Below are positions 2,863 to 56,476 of a DNA stretch of 64,000 nucleotides, one piece after another. A model generated the notes under the pieces. That model made no database searches and was not told where the DNA came from. It saw only the letters and a program-made list of their open reading frames with translations. The stretch lies in the sequence record PP892526.1; one strand, written 5' to 3'. This DNA comes from Escherichia phage vB_EcoM_I14.1. How positions within the stretch are numbered: position 1 is the first letter of the stretch; each line of letters starts with the position of its first letter. Position numbers and translations under genes: made by a program.

Positions 2863-8246
<5,384 letters not shown>

Positions 8247-31957: not shown

Positions 31958-32998
31958 ATGGAGAAGTATACGCTAACAAAACTTCCCGATTCAGTTACAC
32001 ATGTCTTTATCGACTCTGACAGTATTGCCTATAAAGGTGCTTGTGTAGTTGAGAAAGCAAAATATAAATATGTCAATAAACTCACAGCAGAAGAATCTGA
32101 ACCATTTGATAATGCAAAAGATGCAGCAAGATGGTTAGCAGACCAGAGAATCCTTGTAGAAGAGCTTGGCCTAGCATTTGATGAAGATGAATGGGAAAGA
32201 CAGACTTGGAAAGAAGCTAAGAGTGAAAAAGAAGCTATCATGGCTACTCAGCAGGTTCTTCAGGAATGGCTTAAGGTTGTTGGTAAAGAAAGAACTTGGG
32301 TAGGTTACTTAACAGAGAAGGGTGTACATAAACATAAAGACATTAAAGGTCTTGAGCACCAATATCAAGGTAACCGTAAAGAGGCTGTCACACCAACACA
32401 CTTAGTTGCTTGTCGTGAATATCTTTTATCCAGACCAGAGTTCAAACTCTTAAAGGGTGGCTTCGAAGCCGACTCAATCGTTATTGCTAAAGCTGAAAAG
32501 ATGGGTAAGAAAGCTGCTCTTATGAGTATTGACAAAGACCTTCGACAAGCTGAAGGGACTTATTGTATTGATATGACTTATGAAAAGTCACCACTAATTT
32601 TTATTGCTGATAATAATGTTGGTGATATCTGGGATTGCCCTATCAAATCAAAACCAAAAGCTGCAAAAACAGTTGGTGTAGGTTTTAAATTCTTGTGTTA
32701 TCAGGCTGTTGCTGGAGATAATGCAGACAACTACTTCGGCCTTAAAGGTGCTGGCAAAGTAGCTGTGATGAATGCTTTAGATGGTAAAGAGACCTATAAA
32801 GAGTGTCTTGACGCTATCTATGAACTCTATGCTAAAAAAGACTCTTATACCTATGTGTCATGGGATGGACAGACTGTCACAAAGACACCATTAGAGTTAA
32901 TGGAACAGCATTTCTGGATAGCATATCAAGAGAGAAATCCAAAAGATAATTTCTCTTTTAAGAAATATAATTGGGAGCCGTGTATGAATGAAGATTAA
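31958..32998 (+). CDS. 5'-3' exonuclease / flap endonuclease (RNase H-like)
   Basis: N-terminal acidic cluster VFIDSDSIAYKG; H3TH-like FGLKGAGKVAVMNAL. Confidence 0.45.
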   Translation: MEKYTLTKLPDSVTHVFIDSDSIAYKGACVVEKAKYKYVNKLTAEESEPFDNAKDAARWLADQRILVEELGLAFDEDEWERQTWKEAKSEKEAIMATQQVLQEWLKVVGKERTWVGYLTEKGVHKHKDIKGLEHQYQGNRKEAVTPTHLVACREYLLSRPEFKLLKGGFEADSIVIAKAEKMGKKAALMSIDKDLRQAEGTYCIDMTYEKSPLIFIADNNVGDIWDCPIKSKPKAAKTVGVGFKFLCYQAVAGDNADNYFGLKGAGKVAVMNALDGKETYKECLDAIYELYAKKDSYTYVSWDGQTVTKTPLELMEQHFWIAYQERNPKDNFSFKKYNWEPCMNED

Positions 32999-33485
32999 AG
33001 GATTTGGCAATTGTCCTACCTATGGTCATTGGGTATCTTTATGTGGGGAAGTTGACCCCACTAAACATTTTGGTTTTGTCTATTTAGTACACTGTAAGAA
33101 AACCGGACAATATTATATTGGAAAGAAACAGCTTAATAGCGTGACCAAAAGAAAAGTTGCTGGCAAGACTCGGAAGAAGGTAGTCACTAAGGAGAGTGAT
33201 TGGATGACTTACGAGACTTCTTCTGAGTATATTAAAAAAGATATTGAGAGCTTTGGAAAAGAATTTTTTGACTTTTACATTATCCAAACCTACTACACGA
33301 AAGGTGGCCTAGTTTATGGTGAAGCAAACCTCCAACATAAATTCGATGTAATGACAAAAAGGATTGACTCTAAGCTCAGACTCTTCTACAATGCCAATAT
33401 TGCAGCAATTAAGTTTATCACTAAAGAAACTTATGAAGATGCTGAAAAAAGAATCCATAAGGTAATGAAAGCAAATTGTGCTTGA
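32988..33485 (+). CDS. GIY-YIG-like endonuclease candidate
   Basis: FVYLVHCKKTGQYYIGKK resembles the GIY...YIG motif; weak. Confidence 0.3.
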   Translation: MKIKGFGNCPTYGHWVSLCGEVDPTKHFGFVYLVHCKKTGQYYIGKKQLNSVTKRKVAGKTRKKVVTKESDWMTYETSSEYIKKDIESFGKEFFDFYIIQTYYTKGGLVYGEANLQHKFDVMTKRIDSKLRLFYNANIAAIKFITKETYEDAEKRIHKVMKANCA

Positions 33486-39276: not shown

Positions 39277-41421
39277 ATGAACAAAGTACAGATTATTAAA
39301 AAGAATGGCTCACTTGAAGAACCTGATATCAAAAAAGTTTTAGCAGCAGTAACTAAGTCAGCTAACAGGGTTGGGTATAAAGAACTTCCACCAGATGTTA
39401 CCCAAGCTCTTGAGTCAGCATTTATGAGGATTCTGGTAAAGTCCACTAAGCAGAATAATTTGCTCATCTCGGTAAATGACATTCACAGTATTGTTGAGGG
39501 TGCTTTGGCAGAAGTCAATCACGAGATTTATGAGTCTTACTCAACATACAGAAATTACCGTAAAGAGGTTGCTCAAAATTGGGATGAGCTTTACCAAAAG
39601 ACTAAAGACACACTCTTCTTAGGTGACCGTGAAAATGCTAACTTTGACAGCAGTTTAATTTCTACAAAAGGTTCAATTATTCGTGGCTATCTGACTAAAG
39701 AAATCTTTAAACAATACCATTTAACACCAGAGGAACTCGAAGCCATTGAAAAAGGGTTTATCTACATCCATGACTTAAGAGACCTAATTTTTGGTGGTAT
39801 CAACTGTTGCCTGTTTGACATCGGTAAAGTACTGAAAGGTGGCTTTGAAATGTCTGGCATCGAATACTGTGAACCGAAGTCTGTACTGTCAGCCTTACAA
39901 GTTATCGGTGATGTAGTTCTTTCAGCAACTGCACAGCAATTTGGTGGATTTACTTTAGCAGAGATTGATAAGGTACTTGTACCATATGCTAAGAAGTCTC
40001 TACGCTATCATGCTGAGAAAGCAGCATCTTACGGTATTCCTAAAGAACATTACCATAACTATGTCATGGAGCAGTTACAGATTGAATTAACTCAAGGCTT
40101 CCAGTCACTAGAGATGAAGCTAAATACTGTACCTTGTAGCCGTGGTGATTTCGCATTCACAACTTTAACATTTGGTTTACTTGACTCAGACATGTCTAAT
40201 GAAGACAACCGACTACAATACATGATTGCAAACACTATTCTTGATGTTCGCATGAATGGACAAGGTAAGAGCAAGAAGCCTGTTGTATTCCCTAAACTGG
40301 TTTATATTCATGACCAGAAGAGACACGATGAGAATATCTGTCAAGGTCAACTGTACAGTAAAGCTATTGAGTGTTGCTCTAAAGCTATGTATCCAGATTT
40401 CTTAAGTGTATCTGGTCATGGTGCTGTAGCAGAGGCTTTTGAGCGTTCTGGCAAGGTAATTTCACCGATGGGTTGCAGAGCTTTCTTATCCCCATATCTT
40501 AACGAGAATGGAGAAGAGTTCTACGTTGGTCGTGCTAACATTGGTGCTGTATCTTTGAACTTACCAATGCTTTACCAGTATTCTAAAGAGAACGGTTTAG
40601 ATTTCTGGAAAGAGCTTGATAAGTACCTAGAGATGATTCGCAGCTTCCACAAGAAACGCTACGAAATGATTGCTAATATGCCAGCAAGTTCTAACCCTCT
40701 TGCATTCACACAAGGTGGTCTGTACAAAGGGACTAAGAAACCTACTGACAAGGTTGGTTGGGATATCGTGAAGTCTTTCACAGCTTCTTTTGGGGTTACT
40801 GCTCTTGATGAGCTGTCTGTTCTTGCTGAAGGTAAACGACTTCATGAAGTTGGAAGCTATAGTTTTGCATATGATGTTCTGGCATACATCAACATGAAAA
40901 CTGAAGAGTTTAAAAATGAAGATGGCTTCTTATATGCCGTCTATGGGACTCCAGCAGAATCACTTTGTGGAACTCAACTAAAACAGTTCAGAGATATGTT
41001 TGGCGTTATCAAAGGTGTTTCTGACAAGGAATACTTTACAAACAGCTTCCACATGAATGTTGCAGCAGACATCTCACCATTTGAGAAGCAGGACTTAGAA
41101 GAGCCATTCTTCCATATCTGTAGAGGCGGTAGAATCCAGTATGTTAGAGTAGCTAACCCAGAAAACTTACCAGCACTTAAAAGTTGTATTACAAGAGGGA
41201 TGTTGAAAGGTTTTTATCAGGGACTTAACTTTGACTTAGCAATCTGTGAACATTGTGGCAACAGGCCAAAGGCTGATGTTGAAGAATGTGAGGTTTGCCA
41301 TTCACATGACATCTCTGTGATTAACAGAGTGTGTGGGTATCTTGGGTGGACTAAGATTAAAGGCGAATCCCGAATGAATGATGCAAAAATTGCTGAGATT
41401 CGTGACAGGGTTTCTATGTAA
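39277..41421 (+). CDS. nrdD: anaerobic ribonucleotide reductase, class III
   Basis: 714 aa; C-terminal zinc site CEHCG...CEVCHSHD and glycyl-radical motif RVCGYLG. Confidence 0.9.
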   Translation: MNKVQIIKKNGSLEEPDIKKVLAAVTKSANRVGYKELPPDVTQALESAFMRILVKSTKQNNLLISVNDIHSIVEGALAEVNHEIYESYSTYRNYRKEVAQNWDELYQKTKDTLFLGDRENANFDSSLISTKGSIIRGYLTKEIFKQYHLTPEELEAIEKGFIYIHDLRDLIFGGINCCLFDIGKVLKGGFEMSGIEYCEPKSVLSALQVIGDVVLSATAQQFGGFTLAEIDKVLVPYAKKSLRYHAEKAASYGIPKEHYHNYVMEQLQIELTQGFQSLEMKLNTVPCSRGDFAFTTLTFGLLDSDMSNEDNRLQYMIANTILDVRMNGQGKSKKPVVFPKLVYIHDQKRHDENICQGQLYSKAIECCSKAMYPDFLSVSGHGAVAEAFERSGKVISPMGCRAFLSPYLNENGEEFYVGRANIGAVSLNLPMLYQYSKENGLDFWKELDKYLEMIRSFHKKRYEMIANMPASSNPLAFTQGGLYKGTKKPTDKVGWDIVKSFTASFGVTALDELSVLAEGKRLHEVGSYSFAYDVLAYINMKTEEFKNEDGFLYAVYGTPAESLCGTQLKQFRDMFGVIKGVSDKEYFTNSFHMNVAADISPFEKQDLEEPFFHICRGGRIQYVRVANPENLPALKSCITRGMLKGFYQGLNFDLAICEHCGNRPKADVEECEVCHSHDISVINRVCGYLGWTKIKGESRMNDAKIAEIRDRVSM

Positions 41422-43533: not shown

Positions 43534-43570
43534 TAAGGGGACTGTAAAGGTTCCCTTTTTATTTTTTGTG
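43534..43570 (+). terminator. intrinsic terminator candidate
   Basis: ggggac-tgtaaag-gttccc followed by tttttatttttt. Confidence 0.5.
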
Positions 43571-43578
43571 GAGATACT

Positions 43579-44094
43579 ATGTACCTGTCAAACCTGAAAC
43601 GTTCTGCTGCAATGTCTGTTCTGAGACTAAGCTTTGAAGAGCGTCAAGAGTTCATTGATTCCCACCAATATGACCCTTCCAATTCCAATCACATGATTCT
43701 CTGGAACCGTGATAACTTCCGTGAAAGAGCACTTGTCCGTTATTACCCACACTACACAATAGATAACCTGTATGAATGGTGTGTTGTGAAGAACACTATT
43801 GCAACACTTAACAATCTTTGCAGGTATACAGGCAAGCAAACATTTACACTAGGTCACCACAAGCCTGTTACAAAAGGTGGTGAACATCACTGTGCAAACT
43901 GGTTTATTCAAACTAAAGCTGATAACCAGAGGCAAGGCGATAACCTTCTAAGTACTCCTAAGATGACCTATGAAGAGCAAGAGAAATATATCAAAAATAA
44001 TATGCCAGATGTGCTTGACAACAACTATACAGATTTGGCAATATCTCTCCTGTTGAAGTTCGAGACAGTTTATAGGGCAACTTACAATGGCTAA
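43579..44094 (+). CDS. HNH endonuclease
   Basis: GHHKPVTKGGEHHCANW...NQRQG resembles the HNH core. Confidence 0.5.
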   Translation: MYLSNLKRSAAMSVLRLSFEERQEFIDSHQYDPSNSNHMILWNRDNFRERALVRYYPHYTIDNLYEWCVVKNTIATLNNLCRYTGKQTFTLGHHKPVTKGGEHHCANWFIQTKADNQRQGDNLLSTPKMTYEEQEKYIKNNMPDVLDNNYTDLAISLLLKFETVYRATYNG

Positions 44095-44365
44095 AGAGAA
44101 GTGGGAAATTTTACCATTAGTGAGTGAAGGCGGTAACGGTTGTGAGATGTACATGATACGTGGTCATGTCCCAGAACCAATTGCACTTGAGATGGTAAAC
44201 AACTTTACAGATGGCTCTTACAAAGACTTAGGAGAACCAACTGTCAAGCAACAATGGGTTAAACCTGTACCAGACAGCACAGGTAACTGTAGTGTACTTT
44301 ATCACGTTGTAGACCCTGCAAAATGCAAATCTGCAATGGCAGTAACAAACGTAACTTTTGACTGA
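44087..44365 (+). CDS. hypothetical protein
   Basis: 92-aa ORF. Confidence 0.3.
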   Translation: MAKEKWEILPLVSEGGNGCEMYMIRGHVPEPIALEMVNNFTDGSYKDLGEPTVKQQWVKPVPDSTGNCSVLYHVVDPAKCKSAMAVTNVTFD

Positions 44366-45257
44366 GAGAGAAACTATGAAAACATCTATCCGTGTTACAG
44401 TTCATTCACCGACTAAAGGGACTCATGAAGAAGAGTTTAACATCATTCAATTCCCTTCTGGTGAGATTGGTGGACACTTTTCACAAGAGCTTGTTGATTT
44501 TACTGCTTATGCAGCATCATCTATCAACAATGTGATTATGATTGTGAAAGGTTATGATAAGGACACATTGTTTGCTGTGGCACTTGCTAAAGAAGCAATT
44601 GATGATTTAGTCCCTCATGACTATGCCTTAAAGACTGTCATTTTTTACTACTTACCAAATGCACGATATGACCGTCACATGTTTAAAGGTGATGCAGCAG
44701 CTTTAAAGGTTTTTGCTAAACAGGTCAATGCAATGGGGTTTGGTGCAGTCTGTGCAGTTGACCCTCACAGTTATGTACCAGATAACCTGTTTAACTGCTT
44801 CCAGAGTATTCCTCAAAAGGAAATTGCAGTCCACTATGCAAATGACCCACTGGTTGATTACTTAGTAGCCCCAGATGCAGGTGCTGCTAAGAAGATTGCA
44901 GAGACTGCTAAAGAGGTGGATAAGCCATACATCACAATGTCTAAAGTGCGTAACCTTAAAACTGGTGAAATTACTGGTATGCGAATCCTTGATGATGTTG
45001 ATTTGACAGATAAAACCGTCATGATTCTGGATGATATTTGTGATGGAGGACGAACCTTCATAGAAGCAGCTAAACATCTTCGTGAAGCAGGTGCAAAACG
45101 TGTGGAACTCTATGTAACACATGGTATCTTCTCTAAAGGTGTTGAAAACTTACTTGACAATGGTATTGACCACATCTACACTACAAACTCTTTAGGGGAA
45201 GCTAAAGACCGTGGCTTAACACATTATGGTCAAGTTACTGTAGCAAATTTGGATTAG
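44358..45257 (+). CDS. prs: ribose-phosphate pyrophosphokinase (PRPP synthetase)
   Basis: PRPP-binding loop VMILDDICDGGRTF; ~300 aa. Confidence 0.8.
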   Translation: MTERETMKTSIRVTVHSPTKGTHEEEFNIIQFPSGEIGGHFSQELVDFTAYAASSINNVIMIVKGYDKDTLFAVALAKEAIDDLVPHDYALKTVIFYYLPNARYDRHMFKGDAAALKVFAKQVNAMGFGAVCAVDPHSYVPDNLFNCFQSIPQKEIAVHYANDPLVDYLVAPDAGAAKKIAETAKEVDKPYITMSKVRNLKTGEITGMRILDDVDLTDKTVMILDDICDGGRTFIEAAKHLREAGAKRVELYVTHGIFSKGVENLLDNGIDHIYTTNSLGEAKDRGLTHYGQVTVANLD

Positions 45258-45265
45258 GTATTAAA

Positions 45266-45757
45266 ATGGATAAGGGTTACTTCGAAAAATACCTAATATA
45301 CGAACCGGAGACAGGTTTACTAATTTGGAAAGTAACCCTTTGCAATACCGCTATTGCTGGTAATGTTGCTGGCACAAGGTCTAAGAAGGGTTATATCCAA
45401 GTCCAGATAAATAAGAAGAGGTACTATGCACATAATATTGCATGGATTATGTCTGGAGGTGAGATACCAAGTGGATATGAGATAGACCACATAGACCTTG
45501 ATAAATCTAATAATAAGTTGGAGAATTTAAGACTTAGCACAAAGTCACAAAATCAGAGGAATAGGGGTATATACAAGAATAATAAAACTGGTGTGAAGGG
45601 TGTAAGTTTTTGTAAACAAACAGGTCTTTACAAAGCAAGAGTCATGCTTTACCATAAAGAATACTTTTGTGGAAGATTTAAAACGGTAGAAGAAGCAAAA
45701 GAAGCTGTAATTAAAAAGCGAATAGAACTTCATGGTGAGTTTGCAAGACATAACTAA
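45266..45757 (+). CDS. HNH homing endonuclease with AP2 DNA-binding domain
   Basis: HNH_3-type YEIDHIDLDKSNNKLENLRL; AP2-like GVKGVSF...YKARV...GRFKTVEEAKEA. Confidence 0.7.
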   Translation: MDKGYFEKYLIYEPETGLLIWKVTLCNTAIAGNVAGTRSKKGYIQVQINKKRYYAHNIAWIMSGGEIPSGYEIDHIDLDKSNNKLENLRLSTKSQNQRNRGIYKNNKTGVKGVSFCKQTGLYKARVMLYHKEYFCGRFKTVEEAKEAVIKKRIELHGEFARHN

Positions 45758-45771
45758 GAGAGAGATAAAAT

Positions 45772-47553
45772 ATGAGTAAGTCACTTTACGCAGTACCAGC
45801 AGGTCTTAATGCAGATGCTTACAAGGCATCACATATATATCAGTATCCAGATGCTACGCAATATCTTATGTTGAACCTGACACCACGTAGTGACAAATGG
45901 TTTAACAGCCCCTTAGCAATTGATGGTGTAGTTGCTTTTGGTATTCAACGTTTCGTTAAAGATTACTTGATAGACCATTGGAATGCCACCTTCTTTGAAC
46001 GTGATAAAAAAGAAGCAATTGACGAAATCTTAGAAGTCATGAACGGTGTTCTGGGTAAAGATGCTATTGGTCGAGAACATTGGGAAGCACTCCACGATTT
46101 AGGTTATCTACCAGTTGAAGTATACGCTGTAGAAGAAGGCACAGTTGTTCCTATGCGTGTACCAATGATTGTCTTCCAGAACACTGTTTCAGGTTTCCAT
46201 TGGGTAGCTGGGTATCTGGAAGATGCTTTCTCTGCTGAGATTTGGAAGGCTTGTACCATTGCAACTATTGCATTGCACTATAAACGTATCTGTAAGAAGT
46301 GGTCTGACCTTACTTGTGATAACGACTTACATTTGCCTTATCAGTGCCATGACTTTGCTATGCGTGGTATGTCTGGCTTTACTGATGACGCATTTAACGC
46401 TGTAGGTCACTTAACCAGCTTTAAAGGAACTGACAGCTTCCCTGCTGTGTATACAGCTAAACGCATCTATGGACAGTCCTACCCAATCTCTGATATTGGT
46501 AGTTCTGTACCAGCCACTGAACACTCTGTAATGTGTGCAAACATTGCTTGGGAAGGTGGTAATGAGTTGATTGAAGAAGAAAGACGCTTTAAAGGTGAGT
46601 TACAAACCTTCCGTCGTTTCTTAACAGAAACTTACCCAACTGGCATTGCAAGTGTTGTTTCAGATACTTATAACTTCTGGAGAACTGTATCAGTTATATT
46701 ACCAGAACTTCGTAAAGAGATTATGGAACGTGATGGCAAACTGGTAATTCGTCCTGACTCTGGAGACCCTGTACATATTGTCACAGGCTATAAAGCAATC
46801 CACTTAGAGTGTGCTAAAAAGGCTTATTACGAACACCTAAGCAAGCTGGAAGCCAGCGACACAATGTTGAATGCTGTTCTGAACATGAAGCTTGAAAACA
46901 TCAATTATGGTATTGCTGGATGGCTATTGTCAGAAGGCTACGAAATGGTTGTTGACAGAGAAGACTTTGAAGTTGCTGATACAGTGCTGTTGAAAAATGC
47001 TTATATGGTTGGTTCTGCAAACGTTGTAACACGTCCTGTAGCGGAGATTGATGGAGCTATCAAGACACTGTATAACATCTTTGGAGGAACTATCAACTCT
47101 AAAGGTTTTAAAGTACTGGATGAGCATATCGGACTGATTTATGGCGACTCTATCACGTTGGAACGTGCAAACGAAATACTGAAGCGTTTGTATGAAATGG
47201 GTTTTGCAAGCTCTAACGTAGTGTTTGGTGTAGGTTCTTATACTTACCAGTACATGACTCGTGATACCTTTGCATTTGCTGTCAAAGCAACTCTTGCAAG
47301 CATTGGTGGTAAAGAGATTATGCTTGCAAAAGACCCTAAAACAGATAGCGGTGTTAAGAAGTCTGCTTTTGGTGGTGTAGCACCTATGTGGGATGGTGAT
47401 AATCTGAAAGCTGTAGATGGCTATGGATTCCAGAGCTTTGCAGATGTGCTAGAGCATCCAGCTTGTGCTTTACGTTTAGTCTTTAGCGACTCTGAGCAGT
47501 TCGGTTACACAACTCTTGGTGATATTCGAAATAATATTGACAAGCAGCTTTAA
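45772..47553 (+). CDS. nadV: nicotinamide phosphoribosyltransferase
   Basis: Alignable to NAMPT: DAYKASHIYQYP, CHDFAMRG, FKGTD, PATEHS, VVSDTYN. Confidence 0.85.
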   Translation: MSKSLYAVPAGLNADAYKASHIYQYPDATQYLMLNLTPRSDKWFNSPLAIDGVVAFGIQRFVKDYLIDHWNATFFERDKKEAIDEILEVMNGVLGKDAIGREHWEALHDLGYLPVEVYAVEEGTVVPMRVPMIVFQNTVSGFHWVAGYLEDAFSAEIWKACTIATIALHYKRICKKWSDLTCDNDLHLPYQCHDFAMRGMSGFTDDAFNAVGHLTSFKGTDSFPAVYTAKRIYGQSYPISDIGSSVPATEHSVMCANIAWEGGNELIEEERRFKGELQTFRRFLTETYPTGIASVVSDTYNFWRTVSVILPELRKEIMERDGKLVIRPDSGDPVHIVTGYKAIHLECAKKAYYEHLSKLEASDTMLNAVLNMKLENINYGIAGWLLSEGYEMVVDREDFEVADTVLLKNAYMVGSANVVTRPVAEIDGAIKTLYNIFGGTINSKGFKVLDEHIGLIYGDSITLERANEILKRLYEMGFASSNVVFGVGSYTYQYMTRDTFAFAVKATLASIGGKEIMLAKDPKTDSGVKKSAFGGVAPMWDGDNLKAVDGYGFQSFADVLEHPACALRLVFSDSEQFGYTTLGDIRNNIDKQL

Positions 47554-47574
47554 AAGTATATGATAAGAGGCTCC

Positions 47575-47600
47575 TACGGGAGCCTTTTTAATTTCTGGAG
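47575..47600 (+). terminator. intrinsic terminator after nadV
   Basis: gaggctcc-tacg-ggagcc followed by ttttta. Confidence 0.55.
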
Positions 47601-55690: not shown

Positions 55691-56476
55691 ATGGGTATTG
55701 TAAAAATCATCAATGGGGATATCTTCTCCGCATTTGATAAAGGTAAGTTTGATATCATTGGTCACGGTTGCAACTGTATGAACTTAATGGGTGCAGGTAT
55801 CGCTGCCAAGATTTCTAAACTTTACCCAAAAGCATATGAGACCGATACAGAAGTTTATCTGTATGCAGGTGGTATAGGCCACAAACCCTGTGAAAATTTA
55901 CTAGGTAATTTCTCTGTAGCACGTTTAGAACAAGGCCGTATAGCTAACCTTTACACTCAGCTTAAGACTGGTAAAGATGCCCGATACAGTGCTTTAGAGT
56001 CATCTTTGAAACAGCTTAACAGATACTGTGAAGTCAATCAGTTGAAGAAAGTTGGGTTACCTATGATTGGTGCAGGTATCGGTGGACTAGACCCTCAAGC
56101 CGTCGCAGTTATCATTAATCAGGTGATGAAGAGTGTAGATGTGTATCTGTATGTCTACGAAGGCGAGATGTACCACAAGTTACGCTCAGGTTGGAAGAAC
56201 TACTGTGAACCAGAATACTTTGCAGGTGTAGTAATGTTCACAGATGATACAGTTACCCTCTTCAGACGAAGAAAAGGTAAGATACATCAAAGTAACCCTC
56301 CGGTTGAGAAGATGTCTCTAAGTAACGCTCTAGTTACCCACCTGTCGAAGAGCAATCACAGAATTGCAGTAACATTTGGCAGTGATGCAGATACATATAT
56401 CTATGCAAGAACTGATGAGGATGTTGAGGAAATTTTCTCTTCACCGGAAGTTACCTTCTTAGACGCAAAGAACTAA
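55691..56476 (+). CDS. macrodomain protein (TARG1/DarG-like ADP-ribose hydrolase candidate)
   Basis: N-terminus VKIINGDIFSAF...FDIIGHGCNCMNLMGAGIAAKI resembles recalled TARG1/OARD1 signature (CISEDCRMGAGIA). Confidence 0.5.
   Translation: MGIVKIINGDIFSAFDKGKFDIIGHGCNCMNLMGAGIAAKISKLYPKAYETDTEVYLYAGGIGHKPCENLLGNFSVARLEQGRIANLYTQLKTGKDARYSALESSLKQLNRYCEVNQLKKVGLPMIGAGIGGLDPQAVAVIINQVMKSVDVYLYVYEGEMYHKLRSGWKNYCEPEYFAGVVMFTDDTVTLFRRRKGKIHQSNPPVEKMSLSNALVTHLSKSNHRIAVTFGSDADTYIYARTDEDVEEIFSSPEVTFLDAKN

Follow-up and report, generated by a model that had tools for sequence, protein, structure and literature searches.

NAD+ reconstitution pathway 1 (NARP1) is a known phage system whose type example comes from phage Bas63 (JohannRWettstein): Osterman et al. 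detected a two-gene Prs plus Nampt operon in four BASEL phages, of which Bas63 served for their study (bioRxiv 10.1101/2024.02.11.579819). Here we examine the corresponding genes at positions 44358-47553 of a 64,000-nucleotide stretch of Escherichia phage vB_EcoM_I14.1 (PP892526.1; this whole stretch is hereafter called the window). A first-pass annotation, made from the letters of the DNA and its open reading frames (ORFs), had read these genes as a NAD+ salvage pair, phosphoribosyl pyrophosphate (PRPP) synthetase and nicotinamide phosphoribosyltransferase, that probably serves in counter-defence. We conclude with high confidence that the locus is the NARP1 of a Felixounavirus, a sister phage of Bas63, and it is very probable that its ‘Prs’ is Adps, that its ‘NadV’ is Namat and that the two proteins carry out the same two reactions as their characterized homologues.

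In Bas63, deletion of genes 79-80 led to ~20-fold sensitivity to the SIR2-HerA defence and to deeper NAD+ depletion, a new metabolite, ADP-ribose (ADPR)-pyrophosphate (ADPR-PP), built up in infected defence-carrying cells, and the wild-type phage still escaped SIR2-HerA in a pncC nadR double-knockout host (bioRxiv 10.1101/2024.02.11.579819). The reactions were assigned with homologues from the Bacillus phage SpbetaL1. SpbetaL1 Adps converted ADPR and ATP to ADPR-PP and gave no product in the canonical Prs assay (ribose-5-phosphate + ATP, Figure 2D), while SpbetaL1 Namat made NAD+ from ADPR-PP and nicotinamide, preferred ADPR-PP to PRPP, and yielded NAD+ as its only product from mixed substrates (bioRxiv 10.1101/2024.02.11.579819). 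A Namat gene was found in the immediate vicinity of 97% of Adps genes (Osterman et al., bioRxiv 10.1101/2024.02.11.579819). Structures followed for SpbetaL1 Namat (9W5W, 9W5X), from which Lan et al. defined a two-part adenine ‘selectivity clamp’ (PMC12774641), and for Adps of the Vibrio phage ICP1, solved by Liu et al. (PMC13586617). It is the two-enzyme chemistry of the SpbetaL1 and ICP1 systems that we infer for the window.

The 4-kb stretch surrounding the pair matches Escherichia phage vB_EcoM_D4 at 100% identity (PP886228.1; a window coordinate equals the D4 coordinate minus 25363) and ~200 Felixounavirus genomes, Felix O1 included, at 90-96%. Three co-oriented ORFs, of the PRPS family, an HNH endonuclease and the NAMPT family, occupy positions 44358-47553 on the + strand, and the Pfam and PHROG matches bear out the family assignments made in the first pass for the outer two. 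What the present analysis establishes is the orthology, the motifs and the predicted fold of the window proteins. Bas63 (MZ501086) belongs to the same genus and has the same gene order (NrdAB, NrdD, NrdG, small ORFs, the pair, rIIA/rIIB). Since the window proteins are full-length orthologous and syntenic to Bas63 79-80, the locus is a direct ortholog of the NARP1 type example. The two genes lie on the same strand, separated solely by a 492-bp mobile HNH gene, and are thus within the kind of vicinity described for Adps and Namat. By analogy with the Bas63 deletion phenotype, the counter-defence half of the first-pass reading probably stands; its PRPP synthetase and NAMPT chemistry gives way to that of NARP1.

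The NAMPT-family ORF (PF04095 and PF18127; PHROG 448, E 8e-201) is 97% identical to bas63_0080 with 593/593 residues aligned. Among PDB sequences it matches SpbetaL1 Namat best (9W5W/9W5X; E 1e-128), and the same two entries are the top fold matches (TM 0.95, normalised by target) of its AlphaFold2 model (pLDDT 92.6, pTM 0.91). The clamp of Lan et al. consists of a helix motif, the selectivity-clamp helix (SCH), and a variable loop, the selectivity-clamp loop (SCL), that gives a further stacking residue (PMC12774641). The Namat SCH signature is GS-X-phi-X-phi-X-phi-TRD, and the SCL stacking residue is either Arg or the residue after Lys/Tyr; when the third residue is Lys, adenine stacking falls to the one after it, and Bas63 is the example cited (PMC12774641). 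In the window protein the helix motif reads GSYTYQYMTRD, as against GSFTYQYNTRD in SpbetaL1 Namat, which shares the SCH motif, and GAQTYQRNTRD (H. ducreyi NadV) or GGALLQKVDRD (Xanthomonas Nampt) in true NAMPTs; among PDB entries, the nearest true NAMPTs have no aromatic residues at the clamp positions. The clamp loop (PRSDKWF) matches Bas63 Namat residue for residue and differs from SpbetaL1, which has Arg40 instead of Lys-Trp. A catalytic core of D15, Y17, F195, R198, D221, H251, R327 and D329 was invariant in a 33-sequence alignment, as were G458-D459 and T496-R497-D498, and this core is shared with SpbetaL1 Namat (D13, Y15, F189, R192, D215, the catalytic His, R306 and D308).

The PRPS-family ORF (Pfam Pribosyltran / Pribosyl_synth; PHROG 619, E 2.5e-97) is 79% identical to bas63_0079, both proteins being 293 residues long (293/293 aligned). 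The alpha11-alpha12 filament module at the C terminus of PRPS is missing from Adps, a signature of the Adps family (PMC13586617), and the window protein likewise lacks it: its alignment to human PRPS1 stops at query residue 292 and PRPS1 residue 286 of 318, and PRPS1 runs ~30 C-terminal residues past its end. The protein also falls below every NCBIfam Prs equivalog cut-off (the best, NF002095, scored 104.1 bits vs 296, and the rest fell far short of theirs), and passes the broad subfamily model TIGR01251 narrowly (119.9 bits vs 113). It is 32% identical to ICP1 Adps and retains the catalytic Lys, the DD pair and the pyrophosphate (PP) loop, with K190, D219-D220 and C222-T227 as the window equivalents and a loop of CDGGRT vs CDGAAS in ICP1. 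In alignment, R87, H121, D161, K185, D212, D213 and D216 (ICP1 numbering) were invariant across the window, Bas63, Dax and ICP1 Adps; most of the acceptor and catalytic residues of Adps are common to true PRPS too, and this residue test does not discriminate between the two.

From these comparisons the pathway in the window would run as follows. An NADase-type defence of the host, such as SIR2-HerA, DSR1/2, type I Thoeris or SEFIR, would split NAD+ into ADPR and nicotinamide. Adps would use ATP to pyrophosphorylate ADPR at its 1'' position, giving ADPR-PP, and on Namat nicotinamide would displace the pyrophosphate of ADPR-PP to form NAD+ in a single step. Namat would pick ADPR-PP over PRPP by means of an adenine-stacking clamp built from loop residues K42-W43 and the helix motif, and the regeneration of NAD+ would involve neither a nicotinamide mononucleotide (NMN) intermediate nor an NMN adenylyltransferase (NMNAT). 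As NARP1 chemistry makes NAD+ directly, an NMNAT is neither needed nor found; the absent NMNAT, which the first-pass annotation had noted for the window and had wished to see searched for in the rest of the genome, is a signature of NARP1 and not a gap. Indeed, at the level of a motif search, six frames of the 64 kb contained no NMNAT (HxGH / ISSTxxR) or Nudix-box motif, and the D4 record, as inspected at 1-50000 and 57321-85252 of 89439, lists no NMNAT or Nudix gene. The locus differs in this respect from NARP2 of Vibrio phage KVP40. Both employ a phage NAMPT-family enzyme to restore NAD+, but NARP2 proceeds via NMN, needs an NMN adenylyltransferase and has no Adps, whereas the window has Adps and the Namat adenine clamp, with no NMNAT motif found in its 64 kb. 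The NMNAT of NARP2 often carries a fused Nudix domain; in KVP40, NadV/Nampt is paired with NatV, a bifunctional NMNAT-Nudix enzyme.

The family names themselves suggest classical salvage, in which a phage Prs would supply PRPP, a phage NadV would join it with nicotinamide to make NMN, and the host (NadR, PncC route) or an unseen phage NMNAT would complete NAD+. The Pfam, PHROG and NCBIfam labels all fit it, with TIGR01251 just passed and the NadV protein passing the NF006629 equivalog, and the in vitro PRPP to NMN activity that Namat keeps is also in its favour. We nevertheless consider this route very improbable: the Bas63 operon beats SIR2-HerA in the pncC nadR double-knockout host and yields ADPR-PP in infected cells, the SpbetaL1 Prs-like homologue gave no canonical Prs product and its Namat made only NAD+ from mixed substrates, and the window proteins themselves combine an adenine clamp with failure of all Prs equivalog models, in a window without a detectable NMNAT motif. 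Slightly less probable still is a purely metabolic role, by which the pair would raise PRPP, NMN or NAD+ pools for phage nucleotide synthesis and replication with no dedicated function in counter-defence. The genomic setting favours such a role, since the pair sits in a nucleotide-metabolism block (NrdAB, NrdDG, thymidylate synthase, DHFR and a MazG-like protein). Yet in Bas63, ADPR-PP was seen only when an NAD+-cleaving defence system was present; without defence the operon has little of its substrate ADPR, and the authors state that NARP1 makes no excess NAD+ unless depletion has occurred.

Several points weigh against assigning the window locus to NARP1. Bas63 Adps, the gene 79 product, purified poorly, and the reactions were shown with the SpbetaL1 homologues rather than with Felixounavirus enzymes (bioRxiv 10.1101/2024.02.11.579819); SpbetaL1 Namat is only ~38% identical to the window Namat. 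Namat also retains residual PRPP to NMN activity in vitro, which makes some NMN output possible (PMC12774641; bioRxiv 10.1101/2024.02.11.579819). Finally, the window and Bas63 carry different alleles of Adps, and the HNH gene inserted between adps and namat may affect their expression. With these set against the orthology, clamp and family-signature evidence, NARP1 remains by far the best reading. It follows that the labels ‘ribose-phosphate pyrophosphokinase’ and ‘nicotinamide phosphoribosyltransferase’, present in every annotated record inspected, should become Adps and Namat. For phage therapy and host-range prediction, this phage probably evades the SIR2, TIR, DSR and SEFIR classes of NAD+-depleting defence. 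With the pathway's type example in a sister phage, the locus opens no new question.

The difference between the window and Bas63 Adps is unevenly distributed. Residues 1 to ~180 are ~65% identical to Bas63 and the remainder 97%, as estimated from the pairwise alignment. Two Adps alleles circulate in Felixounaviruses: ~154 records are at least 90% identical to the window protein, and ~94, Bas63 among them, are 60-80% identical. Their divergence sits in the N-terminal ~180 residues (window 44376-44920), while the C-terminal 113 residues and the whole of Namat are ~97% identical (estimate), a pattern that suggests recombination mosaicism.

The HNH gene, which the first pass did not mention, lies between prs and nadV, and the two genes are not adjacent. 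Its ORF is separated from its neighbours by 8 nt and 14 nt; Bas63 lacks the gene and has, between clean flanks, a hairpin-containing spacer of 45 bp instead. Single copies of the 514-bp HNH segment occur in 60 phage records, vs 256 records matching the pair. Across three genera (Felixounavirus, phiSUSP1 and Moogle) the segment keeps 90-100% nucleotide identity, although the flanking adps and namat of phiSUSP1 and Moogle are merely ~77-83% identical, and this pattern is typical of what a mobile homing endonuclease would be expected to leave. An HNH domain is thus combined with presence/absence polymorphism at a fixed intergenic site in otherwise collinear genomes. The gene encodes a predicted free-standing homing endonuclease, apparently selfish, that has settled in the intergenic spacer of roughly one in four related phages, a mobile intruder outside the NARP1 pathway. 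It points the same way as its neighbours and leaves little room between them, so the transcription unit probably continues across it.

The NadV protein had been described as about 100 residues longer than NAMPT, which agrees with a length of 593 residues vs 491-496 for solved NAMPT and Namat chains. Alignment, which the first-pass annotation had suggested as the means of placing the surplus, assigns the ~97 extra residues relative to SpbetaL1 Namat (phmmer alignment to 9W5W) mainly to an insert at residues 343-427 (+77 net) and then to an insertion at residues 259-273 (+15), with ~+4 in the clamp loop and minor differences at the termini. SpbetaL1 Namat has neither the 85-residue nor the 15-residue insertion, and the length of the latter differs among Ounavirinae homologues. 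The 85-residue insert aligned to no PDB NAMPT or Namat chain and is discussed in neither structural paper (PMC12774641, PMC13586617). It is predicted to form a compact beta-alpha-alpha-alpha-beta-beta-alpha-beta subdomain (pLDDT 92-96 in the full model, 87 when folded alone) and has no fold relatives. A phmmer search of the insert against 1.84 billion representatives returned one match, apparently a Namat fragment, and no sequence relative outside Namat. The insert was present in all Ounavirinae-type Namats aligned, down to ~45% overall identity, with a conserved core strand GYE(M/L)(V/I)V, and is itself just 20-48% identical between genera. Bas63 Namat has the same 593-residue architecture, including this insert, which is therefore compatible with NARP1 function in vivo.

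Other Namats vary at the same loop, which follows the RPDSGDP strand. In other lineages, exemplified by the metagenomic homologues P0105 and P0110 and by the 529-residue Namat of Vibrio phage Dax (L007, 4546-6135), this loop holds either an unrelated Y/K/E-rich insert of ~75 residues with a TPHG(K/E)xG motif or a shorter one of ~37 residues that keeps a GYE-like strand. The loop is an apparent insertion hotspot, tolerating or attracting inserts.

A macrodomain protein had been noted 8 kb downstream of the pair, and a PF01661 ORF indeed lies 8.1 kb past the namat stop codon, 15 annotated genes downstream. As to its connection with the pair, the position holds, while a functional link is a lead only, based on distant similarity to the macro protein DAX_176 (28% identity, E 3e-15), whose gene in Vibrio phage Dax is flanked by those for Adps and Namat. 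The background to this lead is that a RES-type defence (aRES) yields ADPR-1''-phosphate, which NARP1 cannot use, and that ~15% of NARP1 operons include Adpp, a phosphatase with a Poa1p-like Macro domain that regenerates ADPR; in that survey only genes within two genes of NARP1 were considered (bioRxiv 10.64898/2026.01.28.702374). Such NARP1-AP operons (Adps-Adpp-Namat; Vibrio phage Gary, Thalassaviruses; bioRxiv 10.64898/2026.01.28.702374) have Adps and Namat homologous to those of the window, the Dax proteins being 37% identical in each case, and the window phage, too, encodes a macro-domain protein, of a possibly Poa1p/TARG1-like kind. It differs in that no Macro-domain gene lies within two genes of NARP1 in the window: the macro gene stands outside the operon, its product has an extra C-terminal ~100 residues, and the slot between adps and namat holds the HNH endonuclease.

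The macro protein matches Poa1p weakly (E 0.015) and TARG1/OARD1 better (E 1e-5); its identity to the macro proteins of T4-like phages is higher (33-37%) than to DAX_176, and the T4-like phage records inspected have no Adps or Namat annotated beside the macro gene. The best curated family of the macro domain is DarG (E 6e-13), at 48.8 bits well below the cut-off of 250. A trans-acting ADPR-1''-phosphate phosphatase in the role of Adpp is possible as a lead, and reversal of ADP-ribosylation, or an anti-DarT activity, is a possible alternative. We regard as unlikely, although clearly less so than salvage or metabolic boosting, a dispersed NARP1 in which this protein would act in trans on ADPR-1''-phosphate and, separately, the Namat insert would serve a purpose independent of this, for example in regulation or in channelling a partner or substrate. 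If the dispersed arrangement were true, the phage would also defeat aRES NAD+ phosphorylases, which are beyond the reach of plain NARP1, and it would have escaped the published survey, whose reach was limited to two genes either way. Residues ~160-261 of the macro protein, its C-terminal ~100 residues, had no family match.

Features of the adps-namat locus and the downstream macro-domain gene, in window coordinates
Feature	Position	Strand	Description
Terminator-like hairpin and T-run (upstream)	43535-43557	+	consensus scan: 9-bp stem, 4 G-C pairs, then TTTATTTTTT
Small ORF	43579-44094	+	171 aa; between upstream hairpin and adps
Small ORF	44087-44365	+	92 aa; between upstream hairpin and adps
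adps (PRPS-like)	44376-45257	+	293 aa; database annotation ribose-phosphate pyrophosphokinase
HNH_3 + AP2 homing-endonuclease gene (predicted)	45266-45757	+	163 aa; Pfam HNH_3 E 1.6e-19, PHROG 99 E 3.5e-69
namat (NAMPT-like)	45772-47553	+	593 aa; database annotation nicotinamide phosphoribosyltransferase
Selectivity-clamp loop (SCL, beta1-beta2 loop) PRSDKWFNSPL	45883-45915	+	K42-W43 at adenine-stacking position; mapped from SpbetaL1 alignment
Clamp loop (beta1-beta2), length difference			~+4 residues vs SpbetaL1 Namat
15-aa insertion	46546-46590	+	residues 259-273; gap in phmmer alignment to 9W5W, +15
85-aa insert	46798-47052	+	residues 343-427; lineage-specific, in place of a loop of 8 residues in SpbetaL1 Namat, net +77
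Selectivity-clamp helix (SCH) motif GSYTYQYMTRD	47233-47265	+	residues 488-498; aromatic Y490 and Y494 at motif positions 3 and 7
Terminator-like hairpin (downstream)	47565-47588	+	10-bp stem, 5 G-C pairs, then T-run; 12 nt past namat stop codon
Macro-domain protein	55691-56476	+	261 aa; PF01661 E 4e-8; macro domain ~residues 1-160

The first gene had been taken to begin at 44358, a TTG that falls inside the 3' end of the upstream ORF. The likely start of adps is instead the ATG at 44376, which is preceded by GAGAGAGA and is annotated likewise in the D4 and Bas63 records; a AGAGAGAG element lies upstream of namat as well as of adps. The two terminator-like hairpins probably mark the upstream boundary and the end of the transcription unit of the pair. 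Within these limits, the 171-aa and 92-aa ORFs (PHROG 3500, E 3e-93, and PHROG 4726, E 4e-60, both families of unknown function) are kept in Bas63 as genes 0077 and 0078 and may be co-transcribed with NARP1; the 171-aa product has a weak HNH-like match (phrog_2214, E 2.7e-6). Within 47537-47588, a sigma-70-like promoter near consensus (TTGACA, 16-nt spacer, TATGAT; 11/12 matches) overlaps the end of namat and is directly followed by the downstream hairpin, so that one unit apparently ends and another begins within ~50 bp.

Elsewhere in the gene block, the NrdD gene (39277-41421, 714 aa) is unbroken in the window, while the Bas63 copy is annotated as a two-piece join enclosing the homing-endonuclease gene bas63_0068, a further presence/absence polymorphism of a mobile element. 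The gene at window 32988-33485, labelled ‘NAD synthetase’ in the D4 record, encodes a GIY-YIG homing endonuclease of the SegE type (PF19835, E 9e-28), and the wrong label could mislead searches of the D4 genome for NAD enzymes.

Enterobacterial loci of the nrtR / prs-like / nadV-like type, for example in Klebsiella michiganensis, resemble the pair in the window. A bacterial NARP1 is reported in PMC12774641, and bacterial copies were mentioned just briefly by Osterman et al. (bioRxiv 10.1101/2024.02.11.579819). As in phages, the Prs-like gene is directly upstream of the NAMPT-like gene; the two proteins are 48% and 48% identical to those of the window, and the NAMPT-like protein has the Namat-type motif GS(F/Y)TYQYNTRD. 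These loci differ from the window in being chromosomal and beside a Nudix/NrtR-type regulator gene, with a Namat of 496 residues that lacks the insert. On the K. michiganensis contig DAHJTQ010000013.1, the Adps-like/Namat-like pair (3127-5491) is divergent from the Nudix/NrtR-type regulator gene (2211-2930). NrtR regulators reportedly respond to ADP-ribose, and such a response would fit an ADPR-recycling role of the bacterial pair.

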